NCBI GenBank assembly: GCA_002297365.1
Contig: DBKT01000013.1
Coordinates: 1,601-65,600 of the forward strand
Source of the DNA: Bacillales bacterium UBA743
Lineage (GTDB): Bacteria > Bacillota_I > Bacilli_A > RFN20 > CAG-826
Direction: 5' to 3'
DNA: 64,000 bases
The notes under the pieces were generated by a model. The model was given only the letters and a program-made list of their open reading frames with translations, was not told the DNA's origin and ran no database searches. Made by a program: the position numbers and the translations under genes. This document shows, piece after piece, positions 31,734-54,043 of this stretch. The first letter of the stretch is position 1; each line of letters opens with the position of its first letter.

Positions 31734-32547
31734 ATTATCGTTTCCTTCCACTAATAAAACATGGATAGTTTAACGCGAATAAAGCGTTATTGCACCTTTT
31801 ATAGAAGAGAGAATGTTACCTAATATAAAAGGATAATCGTATGTAGACGGATAAAAGCCGCACGAAACAAAAGTCAAACAGTTCATGCGATCCTTTGTGT
31901 TTCAAAACCTTTGATTCTGAATTATGAAGTCTATCTCCAAATCACCAAATTCGTTTTAAATACGTTTCTCTTTCGTATAAATGTTTCATGAATCAAATTC
32001 CTATCTGAAAGCAACCGTGAAAATCCATAGTTAATAGATATTTTTTAAGTTTTCTTGTTTTTTCTCTATTAACTTACACTTTTAGGAAACATTCTCTTCA
32101 CCATCTAGAGATAAGATAAACTTGACCGTATGATGTGTGATAAACCTTTTACGCCGTTGAAAATCAACGATTCGATTGATGAAGTTTACGAGTAATAAGC
32201 GCTTTGCATTTTATTCCCGTTAAAGAACTTAATGAGATAATTTTCTTCGCCTTTCAATCATCATTAAGTAAAACATTGCATATAGGCCTCTTCTCAACAT
32301 AGAAATGGCTTTTAAACCATCATTAAATCTAAATGTTCTGCCGTTTGACACTCTCCAAGACGCATCAAATCGGCATGTAAAAAAAGAAATACCCTACTAA
32401 TTTAAAGTTAAAGTGGATTTAGAAAAGTTTCAAAACGTCGGATTTAAATCCTTCATTTCGTCGGTTTGTTTTGTTTCAAAACGTCGGTTTCATTGTTTAC
32501 TTCTTTGGTTTTTGCTGATTAAATAGAATCAAGCGAAGGAGCGAAGC

Positions 32548-33837: not shown

Positions 33838-33851
33838 TAACGTTTCACCAT

Positions 33852-38390: not shown

Positions 38391-38891
38391 CTATAGTTTT
38401 TCATTCCATCGTGCCTGTCCATTGGATTGATAAAACGTTATAAATAAATGTTCTATAGTTTCTTTATAATACCATGGCGTTACTTCAATTACCTTGTAAT
38501 AGATCTTTTTCTTGTTTTGTCGCTTTCCCAAATAATCATAAACATTCTTTATTTGCGAATTGGTGCTTGAGGGTTTCCCATATTTCTCCCCCTCAAAATT
38601 GTCGTTTTTGACTAAGTGCTGCGTTAATCTTAAATGGACATTATTAGCCGTACCAACATATAAAACGTTATTTTGTTCGTCTCCTATAAGATAAAGATAA
38701 GCGGTTGTGAGGTTTCCGGCATCTTCGTCTTTTTCAAAAGACAAAATTTCATCAAGGCAGTCCAAGGAATAGATGCCCGTTTTAGGATCAAAGGATGGAT
38801 TACCATATCTAAGTTCTATCCAAGGGGCCTTTCTAATTTTATTCTCATAATGTAGTCTTAGCAAAAATGAGATTAATTTCATGATTGTCAT
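38391..38891 (-). CDS. GIY-YIG nuclease-domain protein
   Basis: It has the canonical motif YLYLIGDEQNNVLYVGTANNVHLRLTQH. It lies immediately upstream of the WYL regulator, within 12 bp of it. The start codon is uncertain (alternatives at 38924 TTG and 38882). Confidence 0.65.
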   Translation of the reverse strand: MTIMKLISFLLRLHYENKIRKAPWIELRYGNPSFDPKTGIYSLDCLDEILSFEKDEDAGNLTTAYLYLIGDEQNNVLYVGTANNVHLRLTQHLVKNDNFEGEKYGKPSSTNSQIKNVYDYLGKRQNKKKIYYKVIEVTPWYYKETIEHLFITFYQSNGQARWNEKL

Positions 38892-39024
38892 CTTTTTTGA
38901 ATAATTATTATTGCAATATAGCAATCAAAGACAATAATACGCATATTAAGAAACGGGTGAAAGCGTTGAGTAAGATTTTTCTTATTTTCCATTATTTCAG
39001 CAAAACTACATTGCTTTTAATGAA

Positions 39025-39225
39025 CTAGCTCAATAAGGTAAGGCATCCGAAAACAATCAATGTAGTTCCAAGCATAAAACTAAGCGCCATGAAGATGGCC
39101 CAACGAATAGAAGCGGCCTTCGAAAAATTCCATCCCTTTGGATTTCTAGCGATTCTAATAATTCCAAGGCTCAATGCCGCTACACAGCCGACAGTTCCAA
39201 TGATAATTTCAATAATTCCTAACAT
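39025..39225 (-). CDS. Small 2-TM membrane protein (66 aa). It is a divergent paralog of the two upstream small proteins.
   Basis: TM-(IRIARNPKGWNF)-TM topology. Confidence 0.45.
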   Translation of the reverse strand: MLGIIEIIIGTVGCVAALSLGIIRIARNPKGWNFSKAASIRWAIFMALSFMLGTTLIVFGCLTLLS

Positions 39226-39246
39226 ATTTATATCCTTTCTTTTTCT

Positions 39247-39423
39247 TCAGAATGCTGCAGCAATCAGTATGACCCCACCGACAAATCCAATGATGGAACA
39301 AACAGCAAACATGATTCCGTAGAAACCTCTGAGGTTGTCTGGGGTTCTAATAATGCAAACGACAGTTGCTGCAACTGCAAGCACGCAAAGAACAATACCG
39401 ATAATTAACATAATTAAGTTCAT
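39247..39423 (-). CDS. Small 2-TM membrane protein (58 aa)
   Basis: MNLIMLIIGIVLCVLAVAATVVCIIRTPDNLRGFYGIMFAVCSIIGFVGGVILIAAAF. It shares the loop TPDNLRGFYGIMF with the next ORF. Confidence 0.55.
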   Translation of the reverse strand: MNLIMLIIGIVLCVLAVAATVVCIIRTPDNLRGFYGIMFAVCSIIGFVGGVILIAAAF

Positions 39424-39525
39424 AAATTTTCTCCTTTTTAGCTTTTATAAGCCTTTTGAATATTTGGCAAATGTTATTTGAGAAGGCAACATTTTCGCCA
39501 GTATTTGTTGTCCTTTCGATTTCCT

Positions 39526-39702
39526 CTAAAGCGAGAAGACAATCAAAGCGACCCCTGCGGCAAGTCCTACTACTGCACAAATTCCAAACATGATTCCATA
39601 GAAACCTCTGAGGTTGTCTGGCGTCTTGATGACACAGCCAATTGGCAACCCAATGGCAAATAAGCAAAGAATAATTCCAACGACTAATGTGACTAAATTC
39701 AT
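39526..39702 (-). CDS. Small 2-TM membrane protein (58 aa)
   Basis: MNLVTLVVGIILCLFAIGLPIGCVIKTPDNLRGFYGIMFGICAVVGLAAGVALIVFSL. It starts 12 bp after the FtsH-like gene. Confidence 0.55.
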   Translation of the reverse strand: MNLVTLVVGIILCLFAIGLPIGCVIKTPDNLRGFYGIMFGICAVVGLAAGVALIVFSL

Positions 39703-39713
39703 AATTTTCTCCT

Positions 39714-41039
39714 TTAATTTTTATTTTCAAATACGTCATGTATTTCCTTAGATGAGAGAGATGTTTTCTCAAGCAATCTTGCGGCTAATTTCTCGATTTT
39801 TTCTTTTCCTTCTTCAAGAATTTCTACAGCTCTCTTTGACAACCCTTCTATAATTTCTGTTCCTTTAGCCTGTCTTTCATCCATTATTGTCATACTAAAC
39901 GGTCCACTGTATTCGGGATTCTCAAGAACGATATAATCAAAACCATAGAAGCCTTCATTGAGCATCGCTGAGATCGTTTTTTTCGCTTTTTCAAAGTCGT
40001 CTTGATTGCCCCCAAAGCATTTTCCCGTCATGACCTTTACGGATAAGAAACCAGCTAAGGCTATCATGCAGGTTTCTTCTCCACTTTTAAGTGTGAAAGA
40101 TTCTTGTCCTGTAGATACTGTTTCAGTGGAACCACTTGATTCCCCTTGTTGAAGAAGAGAAACGCTTCCAAGCTTTTCTGGGATAAGGCGGTAAATCATA
40201 TAAGCATGCCCCGCTTCATGATAAGCGGTTAGCTTTTGTTCTTCTTTTGAGCAAGCGGATTCTCTTGGCAAATCCTTAAAGGCAACACGCCGAATCGCAT
40301 ATGTGAAGTCTTGAATAGAAAGAGATTGTTCTCGTTTGGAAACAGCTTGAATGATGACTTCGTTAACAACGCATTCTATATCCGCCCCAGAGAATCCGCT
40401 TGTCATTTTTGCGATTTCATCAACGCTTACTCCCAAAGGCAGGTCCGTTTTTTCCAAGAAGTGTTCAATGATCAATTTTCTTTCTAAATCATTGGGAAGG
40501 GGAAACACAATCTGCCTATCAAACCTTCCGGAACGGCTTAACGCATCTCCTAAATATTTTCTTTCATTGCAAGTTGCAATCACGATGACGCCTTCTTTAG
40601 AGCTGATTTTGTCCAACTCATGTAGAAGAATCTTCTGGTTTTTAAGATTTTCCGTTATTTCGTAAGCATACTTACGGTAGCCTGCAATTTTCTCAATCTC
40701 ATCAATAAATAAAATGGCGCGATCGTTTTCATGTGCCCTTTTGAAGCCGTGATAGATGTCTTCTTCTACGCTCAATTTCCTTTCGATGGCATCTGAAACG
40801 CTAATTTCAATAAGAGGAATATCCAAATACTCCGCAATATCCATCACCAGGCGAGATTTGCCAGTGCCTGGCTGCCCATAAAAGAGCCAGCCTTTTGGAT
40901 AATGGGCTCCTCTTTCGAGATAAAGTTTCTCATTTTGGAATAAATCCACGATTTGAGCCGCTTCTTCCCTTATTTCCCTATATCCAGCGATATGAGGAAA
41001 CATTTTTTGTAATGTAGTTTCGTTAATTTTTTCAGTCAT
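39714..41039 (-). CDS. FtsH-like AAA+ ATPase/M41 zinc metalloprotease that lacks the transmembrane and periplasmic regions
   Basis: Walker A (GQPGTGKSRL), Walker B (ILFIDEIE), the SRH (…LSRSGRFDRQI…) and HEAGH (TAYHEAGHAYMIY). The protein starts only about 50 aa before the Walker A, so it has no N-terminal TM hairpin. Confidence 0.75.
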   Translation of the reverse strand: MTEKINETTLQKMFPHIAGYREIREEAAQIVDLFQNEKLYLERGAHYPKGWLFYGQPGTGKSRLVMDIAEYLDIPLIEISVSDAIERKLSVEEDIYHGFKRAHENDRAILFIDEIEKIAGYRKYAYEITENLKNQKILLHELDKISSKEGVIVIATCNERKYLGDALSRSGRFDRQIVFPLPNDLERKLIIEHFLEKTDLPLGVSVDEIAKMTSGFSGADIECVVNEVIIQAVSKREQSLSIQDFTYAIRRVAFKDLPRESACSKEEQKLTAYHEAGHAYMIYRLIPEKLGSVSLLQQGESSGSTETVSTGQESFTLKSGEETCMIALAGFLSVKVMTGKCFGGNQDDFEKAKKTISAMLNEGFYGFDYIVLENPEYSGPFSMTIMDERQAKGTEIIEGLSKRAVEILEEGKEKIEKLAARLLEKTSLSSKEIHDVFENKN

Positions 41040-41076
41040 ATCTCCTCCTTTCGGAACAAGATTATCTTAAAAGCCA

Positions 41077-41108
41077 TTCCTACATTATTTATGTATGAAT
41101 TCATTTTT
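41077..41108 (-). promoter_or_regulatory. Shared dyad motif, copy A (CTACATtatttATGTAT), 40-60 nt upstream of the FtsH-like gene
   Basis: See finding 3. Confidence 0.55.
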
Positions 41109-41142
41109 ATTAAAAATAATTTAGAAACTTAAAAACGTTATA

Positions 41143-41640
41143 TTACTTTTTGATGGTCAAAGTTCGACGAAGCATATGAGCCTTGATTTTGAGTTTCTCT
41201 TTTTGCTTTGTATAGAAACGCCCGTATTCGTCCACATATAGACCAGTGACAACGCTCGTATTAAGAAAATCCCAGACAATTAAGTGAACGTTCTTGCCGA
41301 ACTTAACTTTCCCATCGAAAATAATCTTTGTTGGAACGAGGCCGTTGTCTGAGTATTCAGGAACGGGGCAAAACTTTCTTAATTTTTCTACAGCATATTC
41401 TAAAGTTCCAGTTACTTGGTTTCCAGAAAAGGTAATGCGTTGAAAATCAGAATCGTAGAAATTTCCTTGATTGTCCTTATATGCGCCTTCAAGAACAATA
41501 GAAGAACCGTCTTTTTTAACATGTTCAAACCTGCAATAAGACAAAGATGGTCTTATTTGATTTACGCCTGTAAAAGGGAGGCTTATCGTTGTATATGTTA
41601 ATTCGACAAAATTATTTTTTTCATTTAAATGTAGTTTCAT
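41143..41640 (-). CDS. Hypothetical protein (about 165 aa)
   Basis: The ORF overlaps the LemA stop. Confidence 0.45.
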   Translation of the reverse strand: MKLHLNEKNNFVELTYTTISLPFTGVNQIRPSLSYCRFEHVKKDGSSIVLEGAYKDNQGNFYDSDFQRITFSGNQVTGTLEYAVEKLRKFCPVPEYSDNGLVPTKIIFDGKVKFGKNVHLIVWDFLNTSVVTGLYVDEYGRFYTKQKEKLKIKAHMLRRTLTIKK

Positions 41641-41641
41641 A

Positions 41642-42148
41642 CTAAATATCGTTATCATCGAATCCGGCTAGTTTTGTACTAGAATCTAGATTTTGGGAAT
41701 CTATATATTTAGCGTTTTTGAAACGAAAGATCGTTTTTAAAATAACGTTCGGAAATTCATTGATGTATTGATTGTAATCATTCACCAACTTATTAAGTTC
41801 TAATTGAGAATTTTGGTAAGCATCTGCTAAAGAGAGAACGAGATTTCCTGCTAAGGTAAAATGCGAAGATATCTTTCCTGTCGCCCCTCCAATCAACCTT
41901 CCTCCTTGATAAGAAGAATTAGCCACCTTATAAGCGTTCCCTTGCGAAGAATCCGCATCTATGGTTGCAGTTCCTGTCTTTCTCAAAACTTGAAGGTATT
42001 TTGCTTTTGCAATACGCACATTGCTTTGGGCATCACGAATATTTTCTCTTTTGCGGATCACCATATTTCGAAAGCCAATAATCCATCCGATTAACCAGCA
42101 AAAAGCTATAAAACCTAATGCCAATAACATCCATCCCCACCATCTCAT
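41642..42148 (-). CDS. LemA-family protein
   Basis: An N-terminal TM, then …FRNMVIRKRENIRDAQSNVRIAKAKY…, and a C-terminal FPNVILKTIFRFKNAKYI. This matches the LemA pattern. Confidence 0.65.
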   Translation of the reverse strand: MRWWGWMLLALGFIAFCWLIGWIIGFRNMVIRKRENIRDAQSNVRIAKAKYLQVLRKTGTATIDADSSQGNAYKVANSSYQGGRLIGGATGKISSHFTLAGNLVLSLADAYQNSQLELNKLVNDYNQYINEFPNVILKTIFRFKNAKYIDSQNLDSSTKLAGFDDNDI

Positions 42149-43701
42149 AAATTTGATTCCTTGTATTTCAATACATTTATTGCATTTTTTACCTTTTCTA
42201 GATTCACTTTGTGCTTAAACTCGTTCTTCTCTCTATCTGTAAAAACGCATCCATCCTCAATGAGCTTGTTCATGTATTCCCCCGCTTTAGGGAAGCCAAT
42301 AGAACAATGTCTTTGAATGTCGCTTATACCAACTGTTGGCATATTCTCACAATAGAGTAATACTGTAAGATAAGTCACGTCATTTGAATTAGAAACAGGA
42401 GCATTGCCACTTTTTACTTCACCATTTGGAACGAAAGTGTCTGTTTTCGGAGACTCTTTTTTCTTAGCCTTTAATTCAGTGAAGGCGCCCTCCGGCTTCT
42501 TAGAACAGCGCTCGGGATTGATATAGCCTTCTTCGCAAAGACGGTTGAATAAACGACCAGCAACCGGAAAGCCGATGGAATATTTCCTTTGAATAGTACT
42601 GATGCTAATGAATTCATCGTTTTCACAATCTTGGATCAATTCCTGATAAATGATATCCGTTGATTTTTGCTGAGTTTGATTTGAGTTTGTAAGCCCTTCG
42701 GCGTTTTTATTCGTCTGCTCTGGTTTAAGCTCTTTATTCGCCATCTCTGGTTTAAACTTTCTGTTGGATTTCAGAATCTTTCTTCCAATCGTCATTAATT
42801 TATCCCGGAGGATTTGAGGAGAAAGCACTTCGCATTCTCCCTGAAAGTCGAGAATAGCCCTAAGTGTTCCTTCTAAATCCTCTGTATCAAATTTCAAAAT
42901 GACAGAACCATCATCTAAAACCCTTTCCGATTGATTTGCCCCAAGCTCTCTTTTCCCAATGTAAGGGCATAAAGAGGACAAATGAAGTTCTACGTGATAT
43001 ACCTTTTCTTTAAGAAAGTTGAAATCCGTGTTATCAACGTAATCTTCATTGAAAAAATAATCTTTTGAAAAACCGATACCAGAAGTTTTGTATTCTTGAA
43101 TGTTATTTAATTTGATGCATTGATATTTCTTTTGGATTCGTGAATAGCAAAGAAGAAAAAGACTACCATCATCCATAATGAGTTTGTACGGTTCAACATC
43201 GTTTTCGATTGCTTTATGAATCGTGACCACGTAGACAATATGTGCTACAAGCCTCTTTTCAATGCATTTAACAAAGAAATCGTATCGTTCCTTTAACTCT
43301 TTGGTGGATAAAGCAAAACGACTACGGTCCGTTATTTTAACTTTGGGGGTTTCCTTTCCATCCCAACGGATAGCAGAGAAAATTTTGTTCATCGCCTTTT
43401 CAAAATCATCCCGGCAATAGATGGTTCCTTCATTGCTCACATACGAAGAAGCAAAAGCGAGAGAATCTCTTTCTTCCTTTGTAAAGCAAAGGGAGGGGAG
43501 CAAAACGGACTTCTTTAAACAAATCCCGCCATACCTTCCCGATGTAGATTCAAATTCATATCCACATTCTTGAAGTTCTTTCCTATATTCTGAGATGTTT
43601 CTTTCTTTAAAGCCCAAGGTGTTTGCCAATTCGGAGTTTTTATATTTCTTTCCCCCAGCGAGGGCTTGTAGCATCTTGATGCAATTTGCTGTTTTTCCCA
43701 T
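42145..43701 (-). CDS. HTH-WYL regulator fused to two C-terminal FtsK-gamma-like winged-helix domains
   Basis: The N-terminus CIKMLQALAGGKKYKNSELANTLGFKERNISEYRKEL is homologous to the other WYL regulators. The C-terminus carries SISTIQRKYSIGFPVAGRLFNRLCEEGYI and GISDIQRHCSIGFPKAGEYMNKLIEDGCV, which fit the FtsK gamma pattern S.S..QR…IGY.RA.R…LE..G.V. Confidence 0.65.
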   Translation of the reverse strand: MGKTANCIKMLQALAGGKKYKNSELANTLGFKERNISEYRKELQECGYEFESTSGRYGGICLKKSVLLPSLCFTKEERDSLAFASSYVSNEGTIYCRDDFEKAMNKIFSAIRWDGKETPKVKITDRSRFALSTKELKERYDFFVKCIEKRLVAHIVYVVTIHKAIENDVEPYKLIMDDGSLFLLCYSRIQKKYQCIKLNNIQEYKTSGIGFSKDYFFNEDYVDNTDFNFLKEKVYHVELHLSSLCPYIGKRELGANQSERVLDDGSVILKFDTEDLEGTLRAILDFQGECEVLSPQILRDKLMTIGRKILKSNRKFKPEMANKELKPEQTNKNAEGLTNSNQTQQKSTDIIYQELIQDCENDEFISISTIQRKYSIGFPVAGRLFNRLCEEGYINPERCSKKPEGAFTELKAKKKESPKTDTFVPNGEVKSGNAPVSNSNDVTYLTVLLYCENMPTVGISDIQRHCSIGFPKAGEYMNKLIEDGCVFTDREKNEFKHKVNLEKVKNAINVLKYKESNL

Positions 43702-43720
43702 ATAAATCCCCTTTCTTTTT

Positions 43721-44509
43721 TTAATAAATGACTGTACTCATGCAGACAACGGATGCTCTGTTTTTAACATTTCCAGACGTTAAGACAGAAGCGTTCGTGT
43801 AGTTTCCTTCCAAAACAACCTCGCCTGCCGCTTCAATTTGCAGAGTATCTAATGTGCAATTCGCTTTTACGGCTCCGTTCGTTTTTACGGATAAAACTTG
43901 AATAGAATTCAAGGCAATCTCAAAGAGGAAACTCCGTTTTTTAACTTTTTTTAGAGCATCCGCTTGAAAACTAAGATATAGTTCACCATTAGAATCTTTT
44001 TGAAAAATCAACGCATCATTTGGCAAATCATTGCCATTTCCATATATGGTGAAACAGCTCTTGTTTCTCGAAGCTGGATCCGCTCCACTATTTACGATCG
44101 TGATGTCTCCTGAAGGAATATCCAGGGACATGATTCTTGCATCCCCCAAAAAAATCTCCCTTCTCCTATTTAAGAGAATAACATCGGAGGAGAAATGAAT
44201 GGGGGCCTCTTTTGGCATACGGGCAGCAATGCTAGAGTTCTTTTTCACAAAAGGGGACAAGGCCTGAAATACGTCTTCTTTCGGATAAAACATGTTCTTG
44301 TTTGCTATACGGGTCAGCTCTTTTTCATCCAGAAGGGATGCGGGGTCCTCATCTTTTATCAAAGACGTAAGAACGTCAAGAAAGTGCTTTTGAGAGAGGT
44401 TGCCCCCTATAAAATCCGCCAAGAAGGAACACAGGTAGAGAGGTTGCTTGAATATCTGTTCTTTGTCTTCCCTATTAAGAATGATTTTAACTGCTTCAGC
44501 GTAAGTCAT
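43721..44509 (-). CDS. Hypothetical protein (262 aa) with a beta-rich repetitive C-terminal half
   Basis: The C-terminus has short degenerate repeats (VKTNGAVKAN / VLEGNYTNASVLTSGNVKN). Confidence 0.45.
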   Translation of the reverse strand: MTYAEAVKIILNREDKEQIFKQPLYLCSFLADFIGGNLSQKHFLDVLTSLIKDEDPASLLDEKELTRIANKNMFYPKEDVFQALSPFVKKNSSIAARMPKEAPIHFSSDVILLNRRREIFLGDARIMSLDIPSGDITIVNSGADPASRNKSCFTIYGNGNDLPNDALIFQKDSNGELYLSFQADALKKVKKRSFLFEIALNSIQVLSVKTNGAVKANCTLDTLQIEAAGEVVLEGNYTNASVLTSGNVKNRASVVCMSTVIY

Positions 44510-45344
44510 ATTTTGATTCTCCGATTGAATTTAGCAAAAAAAGAAAAAAGATGGTTATTCCAAAAATTATAATGGGAAGAAAGTAGGCTATAAGACTATA
44601 TGTGATAGATCCTTTTTCAGAAGGGAACGAAGATGCAGACACTGCAAAAGAAACGGATAATGCAGCTGCAACGCCAGTTGAATAAGGACGTAGATGAATA
44701 TTGTGTCGGTCACCCTTGTTTACTAAATGTTGATTCACAAAATAAAGAACAATTAAGATGGTTCCTGTAATTAAAGAGAACCAAAAGATATAAGAATCTT
44801 TTTTAAGAGCCCATCCAATCACGCCTCCCATAGTATTCATCAAAAACAAGATTCCATTGACGATGGCTGCGTGCTTTTTCCTGTGTTTCAAATGATTGAA
44901 ATTACTATATTTGTTCCATTTGTTTTCGATAACGGAGCTGAGGCACTGCACAAAGAAGGCGGCAACCCCTATAGCCAACATCATCCAGCAAGAGAAGAAA
45001 GAAGAAATGAAAAGCGCAATGAAAAACAAACAGACAAAAATAGTTAGAAAATAGGCATCATAGAAAATACTGGACTTGTTTTCATCATATTGAATATAGG
45101 ATGACTTATAACCCTCGACACCATGATTTTGATGAGGAACGTATCGATTAGAACGATTGAAGTTATGGGCGCCTCTAGCATTTTGCTTAGGACATTCCCC
45201 TCTCTTCTTTTTAGAAGTCTGAGCAATTCGTTGATTCGGAGGATTATTATCGCTAGAGGGAAAATGAACTATAAAAGGTGGTAGAGCGCCCTTCCTCCTG
45301 CTTCTTCTATTATTCATTTCGAAAGAATACTTATCTCGATTCAC
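44496..45344 (-). CDS. Hypothetical polytopic membrane protein with a basic N-terminal tail
   Basis: An N-terminal Arg/Lys-rich 80 aa is followed by 5-6 TMs. Confidence 0.45.
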   Translation of the reverse strand: MNRDKYSFEMNNRRSRRKGALPPFIVHFPSSDNNPPNQRIAQTSKKKRGECPKQNARGAHNFNRSNRYVPHQNHGVEGYKSSYIQYDENKSSIFYDAYFLTIFVCLFFIALFISSFFSCWMMLAIGVAAFFVQCLSSVIENKWNKYSNFNHLKHRKKHAAIVNGILFLMNTMGGVIGWALKKDSYIFWFSLITGTILIVLYFVNQHLVNKGDRHNIHLRPYSTGVAAALSVSFAVSASSFPSEKGSITYSLIAYFLPIIIFGITIFFLFLLNSIGESKYDLR

Positions 45345-45359
45345 GATATAACCTCCGCT

Positions 45360-46436
45360 CTAGTTTTCTCTAAGTGAAAGCATTCTTTGATAAAGGTATT
45401 GTAGATATTGTCGCATGTATTCAAGGTAATGGTAGATTTCCTCAGGGCAGTAAGATGGGTCCGATAAAATGGATTGTTTTTTCGATAAGTGAACATTGTT
45501 ACGAAGATCGTGAAATTTCTTTCTCATTTGGCCTTCCTTGCTTGAAGAGGGAACGTTAATAATCTTGTTTAGTTCAGCAATGCATTGACGATCCAAGGTC
45601 GGATCATGCTTCGCTGGGCGTTGAATTCCTAATAACATCGCTCCAATTTCAATTTCAATGGCTTCAATAACGCTATATGCTTGGGTAAAGATTTCACGAT
45701 AAATGGCTTTTTCAAGACTTGGATCTAATGCAGGATTAGCCGTGTTAACAAGATCCTTGTAAAAATACATTTCTCTAATGACGATTGCGATGTTATACAT
45801 CGATTCTTTACTTGTGGTTAGATAACGTAAGTTAAAGGCCTCGCAAATCTCATCTAACGTGAAATCGACAGCATTAAAGGAAAATCTAGTATATGGGTCC
45901 GTCATTTTAGGTTTTTGTTTGACAATATCGGAGGAGTTATTAACCATTGGCTGGATAGGCAATTCATTTGATAATCCAGGATTTTTCATGGCCGCCATTA
46001 AAATAGAAGTGGCGCATACTTGTTTTCTAATTCCGTCAAATTCAATTCTTTTCTGATGGGACAGACTTTCTTTTAAATCGTTTGAAAGACTGGCATTGTG
46101 GAAAGAAAATATGAAACCATAGAAAGAAACGTAAAGAACGTCTCCTTGATACTCATAGTAAAAATCAACGTCTTCCCTTTGCGCGCGGGTTTCGTACACG
46201 CATCGTTCTATTTTCCTTTTGAAGGAATAACCAATAGAACGATCTTTTTTTACAGCAAAATTCAAATAATTGAAAGAAGCCCAAACAAGGAAGGCATCCC
46301 CCAAGCTCTTTATTCTTAAATTTTCAATCGTAGAAAAACTACGTTTCACCAAACTATTGTCTACAGAGTTGTTATCAAATTGATGTTCTGCAGCATTTTT
46401 AAGAAGGGCGCTAAATATCGTTTGATAGTTATACAT
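45360..46436 (-). CDS. Hypothetical protein (about 358 aa)
   Basis: The start is placed at MYNYQ, abutting the upstream stop. No motif was recognised. Confidence 0.45.
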   Translation of the reverse strand: MYNYQTIFSALLKNAAEHQFDNNSVDNSLVKRSFSTIENLRIKSLGDAFLVWASFNYLNFAVKKDRSIGYSFKRKIERCVYETRAQREDVDFYYEYQGDVLYVSFYGFIFSFHNASLSNDLKESLSHQKRIEFDGIRKQVCATSILMAAMKNPGLSNELPIQPMVNNSSDIVKQKPKMTDPYTRFSFNAVDFTLDEICEAFNLRYLTTSKESMYNIAIVIREMYFYKDLVNTANPALDPSLEKAIYREIFTQAYSVIEAIEIEIGAMLLGIQRPAKHDPTLDRQCIAELNKIINVPSSSKEGQMRKKFHDLRNNVHLSKKQSILSDPSYCPEEIYHYLEYMRQYLQYLYQRMLSLREN

Positions 46437-46437
46437 A

Positions 46438-47040
46438 TTAAAACTCCGTCCAGCGAAAGCTGTTATTGTTTTCAGAATCATCTGGATTATTATTTTGTGC
46501 ACTAGAATAATCCCTTTCCGAAATCAGTTTTGTTTTGAGTTCAACTTTACTCGGTTCAAAAGAACGAACAACCGTCTTTGTCTTTCTTCCTAAGAAACCA
46601 TATTGAATGCAATGTATGTCACCAAGAACAAACTTTACAACAATTTGAATTTCTCCATCTTGGTTTAAATGTTGAGGCTGAAGAATGATTTCTTTTGTGA
46701 AATATCTTTTGTTTTCGAGCGGAATAACAGGTTCCCCTCCTAAATCAATTTGTTCATACTTATCATTGTCAAAATTTAAAGCGTATACTTTGATACTCAA
46801 TTGAGGCGTTTGAATTTCTTCTAAAAATGCATAAGTATTTTCGGAAGAAACCAATATGCCGTTTCCTTCATTAAACACGTCATAATCAATGTGGTCGAAG
46901 AAAACCCCCAAACGTACACCAATGGTCTTGTCATAGTGGTAAAGTCGGCATTGGTCCGAAATGTTGAAGTTGAATCTTTGATTGTGTTCGCTCACATACG
47001 CTTTAGATTCATTTTCGTCAAAAATATCAGAAACATTCAT
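46438..47040 (-). CDS. Hypothetical protein (200 aa). It is the first gene of the seven-gene unit.
   Basis: An ORF with the dyad motif upstream. Confidence 0.45.
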   Translation of the reverse strand: MNVSDIFDENESKAYVSEHNQRFNFNISDQCRLYHYDKTIGVRLGVFFDHIDYDVFNEGNGILVSSENTYAFLEEIQTPQLSIKVYALNFDNDKYEQIDLGGEPVIPLENKRYFTKEIILQPQHLNQDGEIQIVVKFVLGDIHCIQYGFLGRKTKTVVRSFEPSKVELKTKLISERDYSSAQNNNPDDSENNNSFRWTEF

Positions 47041-47097
47041 ATAATTCTCCTTTCTGAATGGATGACTTATTTTGTCATGGCTATTACTATAAAAATT

Positions 47098-47132
47098 ATT
47101 CCTACATCATTTATGTATGGATTAAATAAAAG
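47098..47132 (-). promoter_or_regulatory. Shared dyad motif, copy B (CTACATcatttATGTAT)
   Basis: See finding 3. Confidence 0.55.
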
Positions 47133-47141
47133 ATGAATTTA

Positions 47142-47936
47142 TTAAGAATCATCTTTCCAAAGAAGGCCCAAAGAAACATCGTCTCCGATTCCGATTTCTG
47201 TGCCCAATTTGAATACGAAGTCGACTATTTTTTCTTTTTTGCCCTTTTTTAGACTCTCTAAAATAGGTCTTACGCAAGAGGTGCAAAAATTATCAAAAGT
47301 TCTATACGGGTTTATGAAACCATCCGTAAAAACCATGGCTCCATCCACTTCCGAAATAGAAAGGATTTTAAGCCTTATATGTTGATAAGCGTCCGCTTGG
47401 CACATCGAGTACGTGATGTTTGCCACATTATCTTCCTCCTCCTGGAAGATTCTTTCGGCCGTGCCGTTCTTTAAAAGGAAGCAACCACCATCTCCTAAAG
47501 AAACACAAATCAACCTTTTTCCCAAGATCATTGCCCCATTTAAGGTAGTTCCGTATGCGATTTGAGGATCTTGAAGAATTAAAGTTCTTTCATCTTCATC
47601 TAGAATGGAGAGTTCTTTATCGGTGAAGGGGCGCTTAGAAATGTCTTCTTCGACAAGTCCATTCCATTTGCAGAGAATCGCAAGACGGATACGATTTTCC
47701 GCTCGGCTTTCGTTGAGTAAACGTTCCTCGTTTGTTTTCTTAAATACATATAGGATTGCATCGGAGGCAAATTTTGAGCCCCTGTCACTGCGAATATAGA
47801 GCTTTCCTCCATGGCCATCGCAAGAAGTAACAATGGTTCTTGTTTCATCATGATAAGAATCAGAATAGTCCTGACATATAATTCCGTTTTTTATATGAGA
47901 GTAACCAATAGATGTTGTTGTTAAATATTGAACCAT
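47142..47936 (-). CDS. PP2C-family Ser/Thr protein phosphatase
   Basis: N-terminal …GYSHIKNGIICQDYS…TSCDGHGG and C-terminal …MVFTDGF…. Confidence 0.7.
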   Translation of the reverse strand: MVQYLTTTSIGYSHIKNGIICQDYSDSYHDETRTIVTSCDGHGGKLYIRSDRGSKFASDAILYVFKKTNEERLLNESRAENRIRLAILCKWNGLVEEDISKRPFTDKELSILDEDERTLILQDPQIAYGTTLNGAMILGKRLICVSLGDGGCFLLKNGTAERIFQEEEDNVANITYSMCQADAYQHIRLKILSISEVDGAMVFTDGFINPYRTFDNFCTSCVRPILESLKKGKKEKIVDFVFKLGTEIGIGDDVSLGLLWKDDS

Positions 47937-47939
47937 AAG

Positions 47940-48671
47940 TTACCACTCCCAATCGTCTACTTCAGCAATCGCTTGTTGCACTAAACCCTTTATCTCTTCC
48001 GTTTGAGATGGTTTCTTTCCTTTTACTGATGAAGAACTCGATTTCACCTTGGAGGCTGTTATCACTATGATTTTGATGATTCGATTGAGCAAACGTGCGT
48101 CATAACATTCAATTACATCTCCGTTTCCCGAAACAAAATCGTTCAAGCAACGAATGGTTTTCTCATCATTTGATCCAACCGATATACCATATTTCAAAGC
48201 AATTTTGAACCATGGAAGTTTTTGCAAAGAAGACAATTCTGTTTTGATAGCTCCGTTACTAGGATGGCCATCGCTCATCAAGAGAATGATGGGAGCCAAT
48301 CCGCCAAAATCTGGCATGATTCCGCCTTGAGATTCTTTTTTTAAGATTTCGGAAAGAAACTTATAGGCAAGATGGATATTGCTTCGCCCTGCAGCCTTAA
48401 TGCCTTGAAAGCCAAATTTTTTCACTGGCAAGCATTTCTCGTCTTTATAAAACGAAGCTTGGGTGGAATATGTAATCAAGGTAATATAGAAATCAACATT
48501 GGTGTTTTCATCTTCCATCTTCGAAAGATAATCTTTAATTTCAAAAATGGCATCATTTACTTGTTCAATACGGGTACCCCGCATGCTTGAAGAAGTGTCC
48601 ACAAGCAAAATGATATTAAGTCTTTGCTTGGCGATGTTTCCTACAAAGACGTTACCAGTCTGTGTCGACAT
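47940..48671 (-). CDS. vWA-domain protein (TerY-like)
   Basis: MIDAS motif (LLVDTSSSM) and a …LMSDGHP… segment. The C-terminus is acidic (DDWEW). Confidence 0.7.
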   Translation of the reverse strand: MSTQTGNVFVGNIAKQRLNIILLVDTSSSMRGTRIEQVNDAIFEIKDYLSKMEDENTNVDFYITLITYSTQASFYKDEKCLPVKKFGFQGIKAAGRSNIHLAYKFLSEILKKESQGGIMPDFGGLAPIILLMSDGHPSNGAIKTELSSLQKLPWFKIALKYGISVGSNDEKTIRCLNDFVSGNGDVIECYDARLLNRIIKIIVITASKVKSSSSSVKGKKPSQTEEIKGLVQQAIAEVDDWEW

Positions 48672-49416
48672 CGTTCACTTCCTCTAAGTTATTGGCAATC
48701 TCTTTCTGAGCAACATCGTTATTATTAACAAGTCCGTTGCCATTTGAAGAGTTATCTCCGCTATTTGCATCGTTATAAGTTTTACTAGAGGAATTTGATT
48801 TAACTTTAGAGGCCGTTACCGCAATAACTTTGATTACTTTTCTTAAGGCTTCCGCTGTGTAAACCTTTAAAACGGTTTCACGGTTTCCCGTGAATTTAAC
48901 CAAGACGTCCATAGCTTCGTCGGTGTCAACGCCGATAGCAAGAGCGTATTTCAAGGCAACCTTGAACCAACCTTTTTTCTTTAATTCAGCAAGGCAATCT
49001 TCCCAATCAAAAGAAGTTGGATTTCCATCAGTCATTAAGATGATAATTGGGGCAACTCCGCCAATATCAGGCATTTGTCCACCATTACTCTTTTTCCTAA
49101 GCCATTTAGCTAATTCGTCATATGCAGCAGAAAGATTGGTTGCACCATCTATCGAAAGATCGTTCCATTTAAAATCCTCCACATTCTTTGGCTCAGAATA
49201 AATCCATTTAGCAGTATCGCTAAAAGCTAATGCAGAAATTTTAATCGTAGCATCGCTAGTATCCTCTTGAATCTCAGGCATGATACTCACAACGTCTCTG
49301 ATTGCATTATTGACTGCGCCAATCCTCTCCCCCTCCATGGAAGCGGAATTGTCAATCACAAACAGCAAGTTCAATTCTTGCCTTGCAACTCCATCACCTA
49401 AAACTACTTCAGACAT
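48652..49416 (-). CDS. vWA-domain protein (TerY-like). It is a paralog of the previous gene.
   Basis: MIDAS motif (FVIDNSASM) and …LMTDGNP…. The C-terminus is acidic (DVDTDW). Confidence 0.7.
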   Translation of the reverse strand: MSEVVLGDGVARQELNLLFVIDNSASMEGERIGAVNNAIRDVVSIMPEIQEDTSDATIKISALAFSDTAKWIYSEPKNVEDFKWNDLSIDGATNLSAAYDELAKWLRKKSNGGQMPDIGGVAPIIILMTDGNPTSFDWEDCLAELKKKGWFKVALKYALAIGVDTDEAMDVLVKFTGNRETVLKVYTAEALRKVIKVIAVTASKVKSNSSSKTYNDANSGDNSSNGNGLVNNNDVAQKEIANNLEEVNDVDTDW

Positions 49417-50705
49417 AATATTTCTCCCTTAACATTGTCATCAAATTCGATTTGTAGATTTTGAATCAATGGGATGACGCCATTTTTATCAATTTCTTTC
49501 GCAATTCCATTTTTATCCGTAATCTTGACATTCTTATCTAAAAAAAGACGTATCCCTAATAGCCCAGGGTTCTTCTTATTACGGATTACCCTTCCTTTTA
49601 TGGTTTGATAGTCCGAAGAATATTTGTCTAAATGACAAGCATAGATTTCTTTTCCTACATCTAAGACAATCTTGTTCTTTCCGAGTTCTAATACACACAC
49701 GTTCCCCTTACTTTTATGACAAGCAGGGCATTTTTCATAGGACTGTTTCTCTTCAAATCCGTAAATATATTGATAACCGCATTGTGGGCAAGTGATTAAT
49801 TCATCACGGTATTTTGTTAAAAGCCTTAACCACTCTAACTCAGTTGTTCTTTCGTTTTCCCTGTCTAACAATCCATTCACAAAAGTTCTATGGAAAGCCT
49901 CTTTGATATAAAGTGGCAAATACGCCCAACGCTTTAATACAGAAGTGTGATATCCACGGATCGGCCTGTTTGATTTATCCGTCTTGTGATAAATGAAAAT
50001 CGGATTGCTTCCATACATCTCATATTCGGCTTTTTCATCAATAAAGTCATAATCCTTCAACCTTTCCCCCTCAAAAGGATTCCCAAGGCAAAGGGCCATG
50101 AATAAGATAATCCCTAACGAGAAACGATCGGAATGAATGTCTGGCAAGCATTTCCCAGTCACAATTTCTGGGGCCATATATCTCATTTTTCCTAAGACGC
50201 CAAGATTTTTCTTATCTGCGGTCACGTTATCATTGTCACAAATGAGCAAGTCACCTGTCTTTGGATTCAAAAAGAAACTTCCATCATTTAGATCTTGATA
50301 AGAAAAACCTCTTTCGTGTAGAGCTTTGAAATCGGTGCATAAAGAGATACACCACTTCAGCAATAACGTTTGAGTATCAAAAGGATTCTTGCCATTTAAA
50401 TAGGAGATAAAGGAAACATATTCTTTTGGACGCAAATCCATAATGTATCCACTCGTTCCCTTATCATCTTGATAGATTTCTAATGGCCAAAGGAAATCGT
50501 CTGTAGGCCTTCCTTTTTCAATGTTGTGTTTGAGGTTAAAGAGGAAATCAGTGCTCATCTGGCTCTTATAAATTTTTAAAGCGAATTTATTTTTGCCATC
50601 GGATATCAAATAGACTTCACCCTGTCCCCCTTCTCCAAGTAAATCGACGACTTGATAAGTGTGGCCATCTTTAACGCTTATTTCATCGCCTTTTTTAAAA
50701 CGCAT
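49404..50705 (-). CDS. Ser/Thr protein kinase with a C-terminal zinc ribbon
   Basis: Gly-rich loop (LGEGGQGEVY), the invariant Lys (ALKIY), a catalytic YQDLNDGSFF segment, a DFG-equivalent region, and an APE motif (YMAPE). The C-terminus carries CPQCGY…CPACH. Confidence 0.8.
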   Translation of the reverse strand: MRFKKGDEISVKDGHTYQVVDLLGEGGQGEVYLISDGKNKFALKIYKSQMSTDFLFNLKHNIEKGRPTDDFLWPLEIYQDDKGTSGYIMDLRPKEYVSFISYLNGKNPFDTQTLLLKWCISLCTDFKALHERGFSYQDLNDGSFFLNPKTGDLLICDNDNVTADKKNLGVLGKMRYMAPEIVTGKCLPDIHSDRFSLGIILFMALCLGNPFEGERLKDYDFIDEKAEYEMYGSNPIFIYHKTDKSNRPIRGYHTSVLKRWAYLPLYIKEAFHRTFVNGLLDRENERTTELEWLRLLTKYRDELITCPQCGYQYIYGFEEKQSYEKCPACHKSKGNVCVLELGKNKIVLDVGKEIYACHLDKYSSDYQTIKGRVIRNKKNPGLLGIRLFLDKNVKITDKNGIAKEIDKNGVIPLIQNLQIEFDDNVKGEILCLK

Positions 50706-50747
50706 TTGTTAGCACCTCCTTTTAATGTGTTTTCAAGTATATGAAGG

Positions 50748-50775
50748 ATCCCTACATCATTTATGTGACGATAGG
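50748..50775 (-). promoter_or_regulatory. Shared dyad motif, copy C (CTACATcatttATGTGA)
   Basis: See finding 3. Confidence 0.5.
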
Positions 50776-51160: not shown

Positions 51161-51247
51161 AAAAGTATGAACGAGTATGAAAATATTATAAAAGTATGAA
51201 CGAGTATGAAAGGGTTTTAAAAGTATGAACGAGTATGAAAATAAAAA
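51161..51247 (+). repeat. 3 x 29-bp direct repeats (AAAAGTATGAACGAGTATGAAA + 7 nt). The third copy contains the real start codon of the downstream ATPase.
   Basis: The repeats are exact over 22 nt. Each carries ATGAACGAGTATGAA. The first two ATGs run into a TGA after 10 codons. Confidence 0.85.
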
Positions 51248-52295
51248 GAGCAATCCATTTACGCTATCTTTTGGGAAAAAGCCTTTTGAATATATCGGTA
51301 GGGAAGACAGCAAGAAAGAGCTGATTGGTCAAATTAGTTCCGATCCCGCCACTTCAAATTGTTATGTTATTACTGGCGTGAGAGGCTCAGGAAAAACGGT
51401 AATGCTTACGGCCGTCTCCAAATATTTTGAAACTGATAAAGACTGGATTGTAATCGATCTTAACCCAGAAGATGATTTACGTGAAGGCTTAGCCGCAAAG
51501 CTTTATACCGAAGCAAAAATTAAGCATCTCTTCATGGAAAAAAGTTTTAGCGTCTCCTTTCATGGTGTTTCCTTCAGCCTTTCTGGAAAAAATCCAATAT
51601 ACAACATTGATGATTTGCTAGAAAAAATGTTGGAAGAAATCAAAAGACAAGGGAAGAAGGTGTTGGTCACAATCGATGAAGCAACAAATAACGCCCACAT
51701 GAAGCAATTCGCCTTATCATTTCAATCTTTGATTCGAAAGGAGATTCCGATCGTCTTACTTGTAACGAGTTTGTACGAAAACATTTCCTCATTGGAAAAC
51801 GAGAAAAATATGACATTTCTTATTCGATCTCCAAAAATTTTTCTTTCTCCTCTTAGCATTCAAGCCATCACAAATTCTTATGAATCTAAGCTTGGATTGA
51901 AGTATGAAGAAGCATTAAAATGCGCAAAATTAACAAAAGGTTATGCGTTTGCTTTCCAGTTACTAGGATATCTTATGTTCAATAAAAATAAGAAAGAGGC
52001 GGATAAAGAAGTCTTATCCTCTTACGATCAATATTTAGAAGAATTTGCCTATGCAAAAATATGGTCCACCTTATCTGAGGTCGAAAGAAAGATTGTTATC
52101 TCCCTCCAGACAAATACATCAATTGGTGTATCCACAATATTGGAAAGAACGAACATGAAGAAAGAATATTTCTCCCGTTATAGGGATCGCCTCATCAAAA
52201 AAGGCATATTCCTTTCTCCAGCGAGAGGAAAGCTAATGTTCGCTCTTCCACGTTTTAAGGAATTCATCGATGTTGAGACGGCTTACGATTTCTAA
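51225..52295 (+). CDS. ATP-binding protein of the PF01637 (archaeal-type ATPase) family, with a C-terminal wHTH-like region
   Basis: …FEYIGREDSKKEL…CYVITGVRGSGKTVML… and Walker B (VTIDEA). Confidence 0.6.
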   Translation: MNEYENKKSNPFTLSFGKKPFEYIGREDSKKELIGQISSDPATSNCYVITGVRGSGKTVMLTAVSKYFETDKDWIVIDLNPEDDLREGLAAKLYTEAKIKHLFMEKSFSVSFHGVSFSLSGKNPIYNIDDLLEKMLEEIKRQGKKVLVTIDEATNNAHMKQFALSFQSLIRKEIPIVLLVTSLYENISSLENEKNMTFLIRSPKIFLSPLSIQAITNSYESKLGLKYEEALKCAKLTKGYAFAFQLLGYLMFNKNKKEADKEVLSSYDQYLEEFAYAKIWSTLSEVERKIVISLQTNTSIGVSTILERTNMKKEYFSRYRDRLIKKGIFLSPARGKLMFALPRFKEFIDVETAYDF

Positions 52296-52681: not shown

Positions 52682-54043
52682 TCAACAGGACACATTCTTT
52701 TTTCCTAAAGCAAAAACAAGGTAATATGGCAATGTCAATATTTCATTTTCATACCCAATGTTATAATCACCGAATTTAATCAGCCGAGTAATACCATAAT
52801 GTTCAGGATGCGCCATGACAGTTTTGCTTGATTTGGTATTTCCTGTTTTTGCTTTAGCTTCAATCAACGTAGATACACCATGATATGCAATCACGAAGTC
52901 GATTTGAAGGCCACTTTCTTTTGCGAAATAAAACGTTTGAATGCCCGCCTTATATAAAGAGTCTGCAACCGCCGCTTCAAAAACGTCGCCTTTATTCATC
53001 CCCATTTTTTCCTGCATTAATGAATTCAATGTATCAAAGCCACATAAAGTAATCATCGTCCCGATATCCGAATAATAAAGTTTGAAATCAGAATTGATTT
53101 TTCTTATCGCTAGAGGCAAAGATGGGTTTTCCACATTGTTCACCTTAAAAACAACGTTTGCGTTCAAAAGATAATCAACCGCATCATTTCTCTGATAGCT
53201 GTTCCCGTTTATTCTTGAAAGCACAAACCTCTTATTGTCCGTCAAAGAAAAAGCTAGTGTCAGATCGAAAGCTTTCTGAATTCTAGATATTTCAGTGACT
53301 GTATATAGGGGGTTTCCACCATAATCAACACGTTTAACCGGGTCTCCTTTGACATCAAAAATAAGACTTTCGTTTTTCTTATAAACAACTCCGAAGTTAT
53401 TCGAAGTCAAATATAGACTTACAGTTTCTGGATAGCCTCCAACACACATATATTCTTTGAAAAGAGTTTTCATTTTTTCATGAATCGCGGAAGGAATCGG
53501 CTTTTTTTCTTTGAGATAATTCAATAATTCACTCACTTGTTCTTCTGAATAGCCAGATGCCCAAAGGAATTCTTCAAAATCCATTGTTTTCATGCAAAAA
53601 ACATCTTCAGCACCATTTGGTAAGGGTGTATTTGCGTTTCTTTGCTGCTTTAAATTCAAACCGATATAAGAGCCACTGGCAATAACTTCAAATCTGCCAT
53701 CTTCTTTAAAACTTTTTAACGCTAGGCGAGAGCGCGGGCAATCTTGAATTTCATCCAAAAGGAAAATGGTCTTTCCCGGCTCATAATGGAAATCTTGAAA
53801 TTGAAAGGAAAGTTTTTTGATAATTTCATTTACGTCTAAAGAGCCATCAAAAGCATTCATAGCTTCTGGATTCGTCCAAAAATTAATCGAATTAACATAT
53901 TGAAAATGAGCATTAGCGAACTCTTGAATGCTCCTGGATTTTCCACATTGTCTTATCCCGTAAACCAGGGCAGGCGAATGTCCTTGTGTCTGGTACCAAT
54001 CAAGAAGAACTGTGTCAATTTTCCTTTTTAAATACTTACTCAT
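52682..54043 (-). CDS. AAA_14/DUF4143-type ATP-binding protein (third paralog)
   Basis: Walker A (GIRQCGKSR) and Walker B (FLLDEIQ). Confidence 0.7.
   Translation of the reverse strand: MSKYLKRKIDTVLLDWYQTQGHSPALVYGIRQCGKSRSIQEFANAHFQYVNSINFWTNPEAMNAFDGSLDVNEIIKKLSFQFQDFHYEPGKTIFLLDEIQDCPRSRLALKSFKEDGRFEVIASGSYIGLNLKQQRNANTPLPNGAEDVFCMKTMDFEEFLWASGYSEEQVSELLNYLKEKKPIPSAIHEKMKTLFKEYMCVGGYPETVSLYLTSNNFGVVYKKNESLIFDVKGDPVKRVDYGGNPLYTVTEISRIQKAFDLTLAFSLTDNKRFVLSRINGNSYQRNDAVDYLLNANVVFKVNNVENPSLPLAIRKINSDFKLYYSDIGTMITLCGFDTLNSLMQEKMGMNKGDVFEAAVADSLYKAGIQTFYFAKESGLQIDFVIAYHGVSTLIEAKAKTGNTKSSKTVMAHPEHYGITRLIKFGDYNIGYENEILTLPYYLVFALGKKNVSC

Follow-up and report, generated by a model that had tools for sequence, protein, structure and literature searches.

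Three units of one island share an upstream motif

We analysed a 64-kb stretch of DNA from Bacillales bacterium UBA743, an uncultured member of the Bacillota of gut type (contig DBKT01000013.1, positions 1,601 to 65,600, forward strand; hereafter the window), in which a rare island at about 32.5-54 kb lies between lysS (30249-31751) and a block of ABC, dus, ftsH and mfd genes (54.4-64 kb). The island holds three units on the minus strand: unit A (39025-41039), with an AAA+/M41 FtsH-like protease that lacks transmembrane (TM) segments and three small 2-TM proteins; unit B (41143-47040), seven genes characterised by Pfam and a TM scan whose order is kept in relatives; and unit C (47142-50705), a TerY-P-type triad according to Pfam. 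Two regulators that combine a winged helix-turn-helix (wHTH) with WYL and WCX domains are encoded in cis, one at 37399-38379 and one, fused to FtsK-gamma domains, at 42145-43701. An earlier reading of the sequence only had pointed to near-identical motifs at three places upstream of units A, B and C, and a search of the whole window indeed found an exact 16-mer, CCTACATYATTTATGT on the plus strand, at each of them (41079-41094, 47101-47116 and 50751-50766) and at no other position. The gene content that the same reading had given to the three units was reproduced by Pfam, the kinase translation and the TM scan.

Read on the minus strand as a 19-nt core, site C (ACATAAATGATGTAGGGAT, 50748-50766) lies upstream of the kinase operon and is found at the same place in L122/L130, L123/L140 and L132, the L-numbered loci being metagenomic contigs throughout. 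Site B (ACATAAATGATGTAGGAAT, 47098-47116) lies upstream of the seven-gene unit and is kept in L122, L130, L123 and L140 and absent from L132, while site A (ACATAAATAATGTAGGAAT, 41076-41094), upstream of the FtsH-like operon, is kept in L122/L121/L130/L131, L123, L132 and L136. When one mismatch was allowed, TACAT-N5-ATGTA matched the window five times against 1.35 expected, a count reached by no shuffle; for the bare arms ACAT-N5-ATGT, four matches compared with an expectation of 0.92, and the one outside the three sites (7460) is inside an open reading frame (ORF). Weight matrices of 40 nt and of the 19-nt core, both built from nine sites, scored the window sites at 46-52 and 29-31 bits, respectively, and all other window positions below 12 and below 13 bits. 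That the 64 kb contain three exact sites and nothing close to them indicates a specific element and not low-complexity A+T sequence.

The motif stands at a fixed distance from a -10-like hexamer

On the coding strand each window site reads ACATAAAT(A/G)ATGTAGG(A/G)AT followed by a -10-like hexamer; in its coding-strand form ACATAAATRATGTAGGRAT the element is followed by 9 nt and then by TAnnnT at all three sites. The distance from ATGTAGG to TAnnnT was 9 nt at every window-type site, and that from ATGT was 12 nt. The hexamers, all on the minus strand, are TAAGAT at site A (41064-41069), TATAGT at site B (47086-47091) and TATACT at site C (50736-50741), where relatives have TAGACT, TACACT or TAAACT at equal spacing. 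Downstream, each unit begins with an ATG preceded by a good Shine-Dalgarno sequence (41039, 47040 and 50705, minus strand, for A, B and C), which lies 36, 57 and 42 nt from the 3' end of the core and 24, 45 and 30 nt from the end of the hexamer. Among the 22 sites that were found without requiring a -10 sequence, 19 carried TAnnnT exactly 12 nt past the dyad by our own tally, compared with 5 of 120 chance 16-mer sites.

With the hexamer placed at -12 to -7, the 19-mer would extend from about -37 to -19, the proximal half-site ATGTAGG falling at -28 to -22. At the window sites the -35 position is then occupied by the ATAAAT of the motif, whose match to TTGACA (2-3 of 6) is at background level, in agreement with the earlier claim that the motif overlaps the probable -35 region. 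With the -10 hexamer taken to be the one 12 nt downstream, the best -35 match averaged about 3 of 6 (2-3 at the window sites and 2-4 over 23 sites; background about 2.5), and the -10 itself, assigned by consensus, scored 4-6 of 6. No TGn extended -10 was found at window-type sites.

The pattern (T)ACAT-N5-ATGT(A), with at most one arm mismatch, was present at all 23 tabulated sites. The arms ACAT and ATGT, the proximal flank AGGRAT and the 5-nt spacer AAATR were strongly kept, the spacer equally to the arms, and the distal flank was variable. The dyad symmetry proposed by the sequence-only reading was thus recovered in the conserved arms, although in an imperfect, asymmetric form. Such an inverted repeat, with its 5-bp spacing, is compatible with a wHTH dimer.

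A second small dyad was seen in the leader of unit B (47062-47078; minus strand CATGACAAAATAAGTCATC), between the -10 hexamer and the Shine-Dalgarno sequence. It reads ATGAC-N7-GTCAT in the window and GTGAC-N6-GTCAC in L122 and L123, where both sides are changed, and it is broken in L140; as RNA, this leader dyad showed no folding advantage over shuffled sequence (z -0.5 to -1.3).

The motif is kept at operon heads in diverged relatives

The WYL-FtsK-gamma protein is rare, with three close clusters among 5.8 billion proteins. Diverged relatives, whose proteins are 49-88% identical, retained the gene order and, at the heads of the corresponding operons, the motif, in the midst of flanking DNA that had diverged. 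Two contigs with 59%- and 49%-identical WYL-FtsK-gamma proteins retained the full gene order and the motif at all three equivalent intergenic positions, and the invariant alignment columns in these relatives were concentrated in the motif, the -10 hexamer and the Shine-Dalgarno/ATG region. Units A, B and C form one co-linear array in the diverged relatives, and no terminator-like structures were found between them; hence the sites probably mark three promoters within a single array of about 15-18 genes and not the heads of isolated units. The sequence-only reading had proposed about 14 genes in one co-regulated system; the co-linear array agrees with a single system, and the gene count is revised upward.

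The FtsH-like protein belongs to 15 clusters of 45-100% identity, true FtsH being well apart at 33%. Its closer members occur in the same system with the motif, two of them (81% and 56%) recovered by protein search and one (88%, L136) by motif scan, and homologues of 45-51% identity (L124-L127), used as negative controls, lie in other contexts with no motif. Fusion of units C and B in L132 leaves 15 nt between them and no B site, and sites C and A are retained there at an unchanged distance from TAAACT. The loss of the B site exactly where the units fuse is the behaviour expected of a promoter element. Conversely, the motif heads operons with differing first genes in L135, L138 and L141.

A metagenome scan with the motif pattern ACATAAATRATGTAGG-N9-TANNNT returned 20 stretches, eight of which contained homologues of genes of the system. 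Together with the lack of further copies in 64 kb, this speaks against the possibility, raised with the original claim, that the motif is a common low-complexity element. The remaining 12 stretches lacked the GGRAT extension, and about half of them were inside ORFs of at least 100 amino acids. Among the recovered arrangements, L135, L142 and L150 start with the FtsH-like gene and continue with the motif, another AAA+ gene and the operon of the kinase, and in L138 and L141 the motif is followed by a gene that is small or of HNH type, by one that is proteasome-like and by the kinase. The 16-mer scanned against a genome collection of 596 Gb gave single chance matches in unrelated taxa, as the 16-mer is too short for a collection of that size. 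In viral contigs the motif scan gave two chance-like matches, one inside an 874-amino-acid ORF and neither with genes of the system, and the WYL clade profile found no relatives there; the viral contigs therefore give no sign of a phage-borne element.

The motif accompanies a WYL regulator subfamily

The small regulator (326 amino acids; 37399-38379, minus strand) matched WYL at 3.4e-15 and WCX at 1e-12, with a weak HTH_11 match, and the regulator of unit B (518 amino acids; 42145-43701, minus strand) is a wHTH-WYL-WCX protein with two FtsK-gamma domains (WYL 5.5e-4, WCX 3e-8, FtsK_gamma 1e-15). They are paralogs, 32% identical overall and 53% identical in their N-terminal winged helices. Across ten aligned WYL proteins the winged helices were 46-67% identical, with R34, N35, Y39 and E42 invariant, and a recognition helix TNPRNIxEYKKEL is common to the small WYL proteins and the WYL-FtsK-gamma paralogs. 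In an AlphaFold (AF2) model of the small regulator (predicted local distance difference test score, pLDDT, 81) this segment (residues 33-45) forms helix three of the winged helix. The clade of the small regulator comprises at least 270 clusters of proteins that are 39-55% identical and 312-335 amino acids long, and LETNPRNI(I/P/V)EY(K/R)KEL was near-invariant in all 120 clade members listed.

The core pattern ACAT-N5-ATGT-N12-TAnnnT was also found adjoining clade members of 34-55% identity in five other contexts. It occurred one to three times per WYL-clade locus, upstream of correctly oriented genes, against 0-0.1 expected, and was absent from three FtsH-like loci without WYL genes. L151 has two tandem sites and an operon that ends in the WYL gene and contains no kinase; L155 has three sites, two of them divergent, which head FtsK-gamma/WYL and AAA operons; L156 and L159 each have one site heading an operon of FtsK-gamma, kinase, vWA, vWA and PP2C genes that runs on to the WYL gene; and L160 has two WYL paralogs and three sites. 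The window, L121, L130 and L160 each encode two WYL paralogs with the same helix, and the motif is also present with a single WYL gene in L151, L155, L156 and L159 (about 11-21 kb per locus). In these four loci WYL is the last or a late gene of the motif-driven operon, and in unit B the WYL-FtsK-gamma gene comes fifth. These data make a strong, if correlative, case that this WYL subfamily would read the motif. Since the motif travels with the subfamily, it is, very probably, the site that these regulators bind, which would make the about 15-18 genes one co-regulated unit, and since the reading helix is common to both paralogs, either or both of them may bind.

Several further features of these regulators were observed. 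FtsK-gamma winged helices recur with the WYL clade: they are fused twice to the WYL paralog in the window type, and they occur as a separate protein of 94-96 or 261 amino acids at the head of the motif-driven kinase operon in L155 (8328-8618), L156 (4698-5483) and L159 (5095-5379). A reading of AGGRAT by the FtsK-gamma domains, in the manner of FtsK orienting polar sequences (KOPS), was considered and kept as an idea; AGGRAT correlates only in part with fused FtsK-gamma, and L151 combines AGGAAT with a plain WYL protein. The WYL signature of the WYL-FtsK-gamma protein is weak compared with that of the small regulator, and Asn replaces the second basic residue of the FKLxRI ligand motif that is kept in the small regulator and its clade, except in L132, where the WYL-FtsK-gamma gene is the only WYL gene of the contig. 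The ligand pocket of this paralog may thus be degenerate. Upstream of the GIY-YIG and small WYL genes, at about 38991-39020 (minus strand), there is a sigma-A-like TTAAAA-18-(TG)AAATAAT with a half-site AATGTAG in its spacer, which may reflect weak autoregulation or chance.

Proposed activation by -35 replacement and its alternatives

We consider it probable that the motif is the cis-element of three WYL-dependent promoters, whose regulator is most probably an activator. Such a promoter would consist of the imperfect dyad ACAT-AAATR-ATGT (extended to ATGTAGGRAT), a 12-nt gap after ATGT and a sigma-A-type -10 TAnnnT. The N-terminal winged helix of the wHTH-WYL-WCX proteins of the island would read the element, the 326-amino-acid regulator and its FtsK-gamma-fused paralog binding as homodimers or as a heterodimer, and the bound regulator would stand in for the -35 contact in the manner of PafBC and SiwR. 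A ligand on the WYL domain would act as the trigger, for which the precedents are single-stranded DNA (ssDNA) or another nucleic-acid or nucleotide signal. As an outcome, three sets of genes would be co-induced: the TerY-P module of kinase, vWA and PP2C genes, the soluble FtsH-like protease together with the 2-TM microproteins, and the seven-gene module, in which the second WYL protein is encoded and would provide feedback.

As for the direction of control, both activation and repression are known in the wHTH-WYL-WCX family (PMC11662680), and we lean towards activation. The absence of both a -35 box and an extended -10 makes activation by -35 replacement most probable. The 5-bp-spaced dyad that tracks the WYL clade is in keeping with the dimeric HTH operator of the sequence-only reading; its asymmetry and its position, which resembles the '-26' element of PafBC and SiwR, nevertheless make activation likelier than classical operator repression. 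Profile comparison likewise placed the clade nearer to the activator PafBC (1.7e-17) than to the repressors BrxR (2e-9 to 4e-5) and CapW (1e-3), and a fold search with the small-WYL model ranked DriD (2e-14) and PafB/PafC (4e-13) ahead of BrxR/CapW (about 3-5e-8).

A number of points weigh against this reading. The preference for activators, in sequence and in fold, comes mainly from the WYL-WCX part and the linker, and global template-modelling scores were low (about 0.4). The three promoters are putative, being assigned by consensus, and copies of the motif in L155 (5140), L156 (9952) and L159 (11042) have no -10 partner. No full motif, just the lone half-site, lies directly upstream of the small WYL gene of the window (37399-38379), a layout that also differs from the BrxR/CapW type, in which an autoregulated regulator gene follows its box at the head of the island. 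All relatives are metagenomic, and orthologous sites are non-independent observations. Finally, the home-genome scan covers 64 kb of the source genome, and the regulon may be larger.

The same motif and the same WYL binder could also form an operator of BrxR/CapW type, where the dimer would cover the promoter at its -35 region or at an internal -10 and keep RNA polymerase out until released by a ligand, for example ssDNA. We regard this as rather unlikely, even though the WYL regulators described in defence islands, BrxR and CapW, are repressors (PMC9122601, PMC11662680). The AATAAT or AATGAT inside the motif could serve as a -10, in which case a bound dimer would repress, and at 6 of 23 sites, including A and C of the window, this internal -10 is preceded, 18 nt upstream, by a hexamer that agrees with TTGACA in 4-5 of 6 positions. 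In L156 (9952-9970; also in L157 and L158) a reverse copy, TTTATGTTATAAT on the gene strand, has a half-site overlapping the extended -10 of a TGnTATAAT promoter just upstream of the WYL gene, an arrangement that resembles autorepression. However, the mean -35 support for an internal -10 was at background (2.70 versus 2.51), and repression leaves the conserved TAnnnT 12 nt downstream unexplained. BrxR boxes, moreover, sit downstream of a complete promoter and not in the place of the -35 (PMC9122601), and the clade is closer to PafBC and DriD, as described above.

Explanations that dispense with a dedicated regulator fare worse. If the sites were copies of a promoter cassette read by RNA polymerase itself, through an alternative sigma or an unusual sigma-A, their likeness would stem from common descent. 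The asymmetry of the motif and the partial likeness of the 9 nt between it and the -10 (AATGGnTTT), as after duplication, would agree with this, yet Pfam, NCBIfam and PADLOC revealed no sigma-like protein in the conserved cluster, conservation across distant contexts with wholly different flanks is highest in the dyad arms, and the motif follows the WYL clade where all other genes differ (L151, L155 and L160), so that we judge such a cassette very improbable. We know of no Bacillota sigma consensus that the motif fits, nor of a Bacillota regulator motif (TnrA, Fur, LexA and others) that it resembles. Still less credible is a site-specific recombination or cassette boundary that would allow modules to be shuffled. 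The sites are direct repeats at module boundaries and the module order varies (the FtsH-like gene is first in L135, and C and B are fused in L132), but the cluster has no conserved recombinase, the spacing from each site to the -10 hexamer is fixed, the hexamer lies 24-45 nt from starts with a Shine-Dalgarno sequence and ATG, one copy stands at the outer edge beside housekeeping genes (L138, after pyruvate kinase) and L135 has a single copy. We give the least credence to an RNA element in the 5' leaders, a hairpin acting on translation or stability: the dyad could give a 5-bp stem, whereas this stem has just 4-5 A/U-rich pairs, its loop is conserved like the arms with no compensatory arm changes, the -10-like hexamer lies downstream of the motif, and Rfam gave no match in 36-53 kb at E <= 1.

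Comparison with characterised WYL-controlled promoters

The closest promoter architectures are those of two actinobacterial systems. At the msmeg_1357-56 promoter of Mycobacterium smegmatis, SiwR binds a 19-bp imperfect palindrome between -35 and -10, and a GGA triplet near -26 is needed for activation (PMC10693628). The window motif is similar in its length of 19 bp, in a GGA/GGG about 9-11 nt upstream of the -10 and in its association with a wHTH-WYL-WCX regulator (SiwR being a homodimer). SiwR, however, is actinobacterial and controls one DinB-like operon through an unrelated sequence, whereas here three promoters of a Bacillota accessory island are accompanied by two paralogs; activation is known for SiwR and is proposed here from sequence features. 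Hybrid promoters of PafBC lack a -35 and combine a canonical -10 with a '-26 element' that occupies -23 to -28 (PMC8635444, PMC11804915). The putative window promoters share the -10 without a -35, the element at -23 to -28 and the encoding of two paralogous wHTH-WYL-WCX proteins together, and PafBC was the best solved-structure sequence match of the small-WYL clade. In contrast, the PafBC element is a short asymmetric GTC-containing motif with no dyad, and PafB and PafC are encoded by adjacent genes and form an obligate heterodimer that controls about 150 DNA-damage genes, while the paralogs here lie 4 kb apart and one carries FtsK-gamma domains. No heterodimeric WYL factor other than PafBC has been reported, according to PMC11804915. 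That the two paralogs would act as a PafBC-like heterodimer, or as an activator/anti-activator pair, in replacing -35 recognition at the three promoters is doubtful in our view. If it were true, the pair would represent 'sigma adaptation' outside Actinobacteria, switching on an undescribed multi-module conflict system in which a TerY-P triad for signalling is joined with FtsK-gamma domains for DNA sensing and with a soluble FtsH-like protease and 2-TM microproteins.

Other WYL regulators resemble the system in context or in dyad geometry. BrxR boxes have 10-11-bp arms with a 5-bp spacer (PMC9122601); as with BrxR and CapW (PMC9122601, PMC11662680), the window has WYL regulators in an accessory or defence island, 5-bp-spaced inverted repeats, more than one box per island and one arm that is better conserved. 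BrxR and CapW differ in being repressors of about 285-300 amino acids that are encoded by the first operon gene and show weaker fold and profile similarity to the clade. DdaA of Moraxellaceae binds CGWCA-N5-TGWCG (PMC12392091), and the sites of DriD of Caulobacter lie upstream of an intact -35 (PMC9186387). These WYL activators share with the window a palindrome of 5-N5-5 geometry, DdaA also controls defence genes and DriD was the best fold match, but both govern chromosomal DNA-damage regulons in Proteobacteria that are not tied to a single island.

A WYL factor acting with a 5-bp-spaced dyad in promoters of accessory or defence islands is thus already established by BrxR, CapW, DdaA, SiwR and PafBC. 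What is new is the specific, predicted motif-regulator pair for a large Bacillota subfamily, the multi-promoter layout over a conserved array of TerY-P, uncharacterised and FtsH-like genes, the recurrent association of the clade with FtsK-gamma domains and TerY-P triads, and the presence of two paralogous WYL proteins with an identical type of reading head; a literature search found no paper that combines these components. The core ACAT-N5-ATGT-N12-TAnnnT provides a candidate regulator-operator pair for a hitherto uncharacterised WYL subfamily, which spans at least 270 clusters and has a single invariant reading helix. It would tie about 15-18 'dark' genes into one putatively inducible unit, which offers a starting point for the function of TerY-P-centred islands. 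If activation holds true, the promoter logic of -35 replacement seen in PafBC and SiwR of Actinobacteria would extend to accessory and defence islands of Bacillota.

Genes of the island and its variants

Unit C begins with a Ser/Thr kinase (49404-50705; Pkinase 4e-14) whose translation ends in a CPQC-N17-CPAC zinc ribbon, followed by two vWA proteins (48652-49416 and 47940-48671; VWA 5e-10 and 1e-6) and a PP2C phosphatase (47142-47936; PP2C_2 4e-26), all on the minus strand. In PMC11090510 the TerY-P triad (Anantharaman et al. 2012; Gao et al. 2020) is described as the combination of a TerY-like vWA protein with a phosphatase of PP2C type and with a Ser/Thr kinase fused C-terminally to a zinc ribbon or OB fold. 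Unit C shows this make-up in one operon, with the zinc ribbon on its kinase; it differs in having two vWA genes and in being embedded in a larger array with WYL-FtsK-gamma, uncharacterised proteins and a soluble FtsH-like protease. No TerY-P-specific PADLOC model was matched, and the kinase matched generic kinase models only.

Unit B, also on the minus strand, encodes proteins of 200 (46438-47040), 358 (45360-46436), 282 (44496-45344) and 262 amino acids (43721-44509), the third with four TM-like segments in the TM scan, then the WYL-FtsK-gamma regulator, a weakly LemA-like protein of 168 amino acids with one TM segment (41642-42148) and a protein of 171 amino acids (41143-41658). Four of its genes had no family in Pfam, PADLOC, NCBIfam or PHROGs. 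A single-sequence AlphaFold model of the 358-amino-acid protein had a mean pLDDT of 48 and was not used.

In unit A (minus strand), the TM-less FtsH-like protease (39714-41039) was identified by Pfam, with a PADLOC IetA-like match over its ATPase part. It is followed by 2-TM microproteins of 58, 58 and 66 amino acids (39526-39702, 39247-39423 and 39025-39225), which were recognised by the TM scan and by the gene calls of L128. The two 58-amino-acid proteins are clearly similar to each other, and the microproteins could be membrane anchors or effectors of the protease. A 141-amino-acid ORF at 39347-39772 in the ORF list was rejected as an overlapping-frame artefact. Beyond unit A lie a GIY-YIG protein (38391-38924, minus strand; Pfam) and the small regulator, whose ortholog follows the FtsH-like operon within about 70-260 nt in L130 and L136. 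A genuine membrane FtsH of 734 amino acids is encoded 19 kb from its TM-less paralog (59809-62013), and a tblastn search with a distant FtsH-like query (L135, 510 amino acids) matched both FtsH-type genes of the window at 26% identity.

Divergent from unit C is a gene for a STAND/AAA ATPase of 356 amino acids (51225-52295, plus strand; Pfam), which adjoins the kinase operon in L123 and L130 too. It has no motif of its own in the weight-matrix scans, and whether it belongs to the system is uncertain. Three genes for DUF4143/AAA_14 ATPases flank the island on both sides (32548-35135 and 52682-54043; PADLOC PDC-S01, E down to 1e-157). The lysS protein was found on many more contigs than the island proteins, which is consistent with an accessory insertion. 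From their domain content and the island context, an anti-phage or stress role of the island genes may be proposed.

As a search handle, the motif alone led to new variants with proteasome-like, MACPF or ABC modules. A gene for a proteasome/HslV-like subunit of 207-211 amino acids directly precedes the TerY-P kinase in L138 (10308-10931) and L141 (1115-1750), and in other variants MACPF and ABC modules (L159) stand in for the FtsH-like protease. These variants suggest that effector modules are exchangeable around a core of TerY-P and WYL genes.

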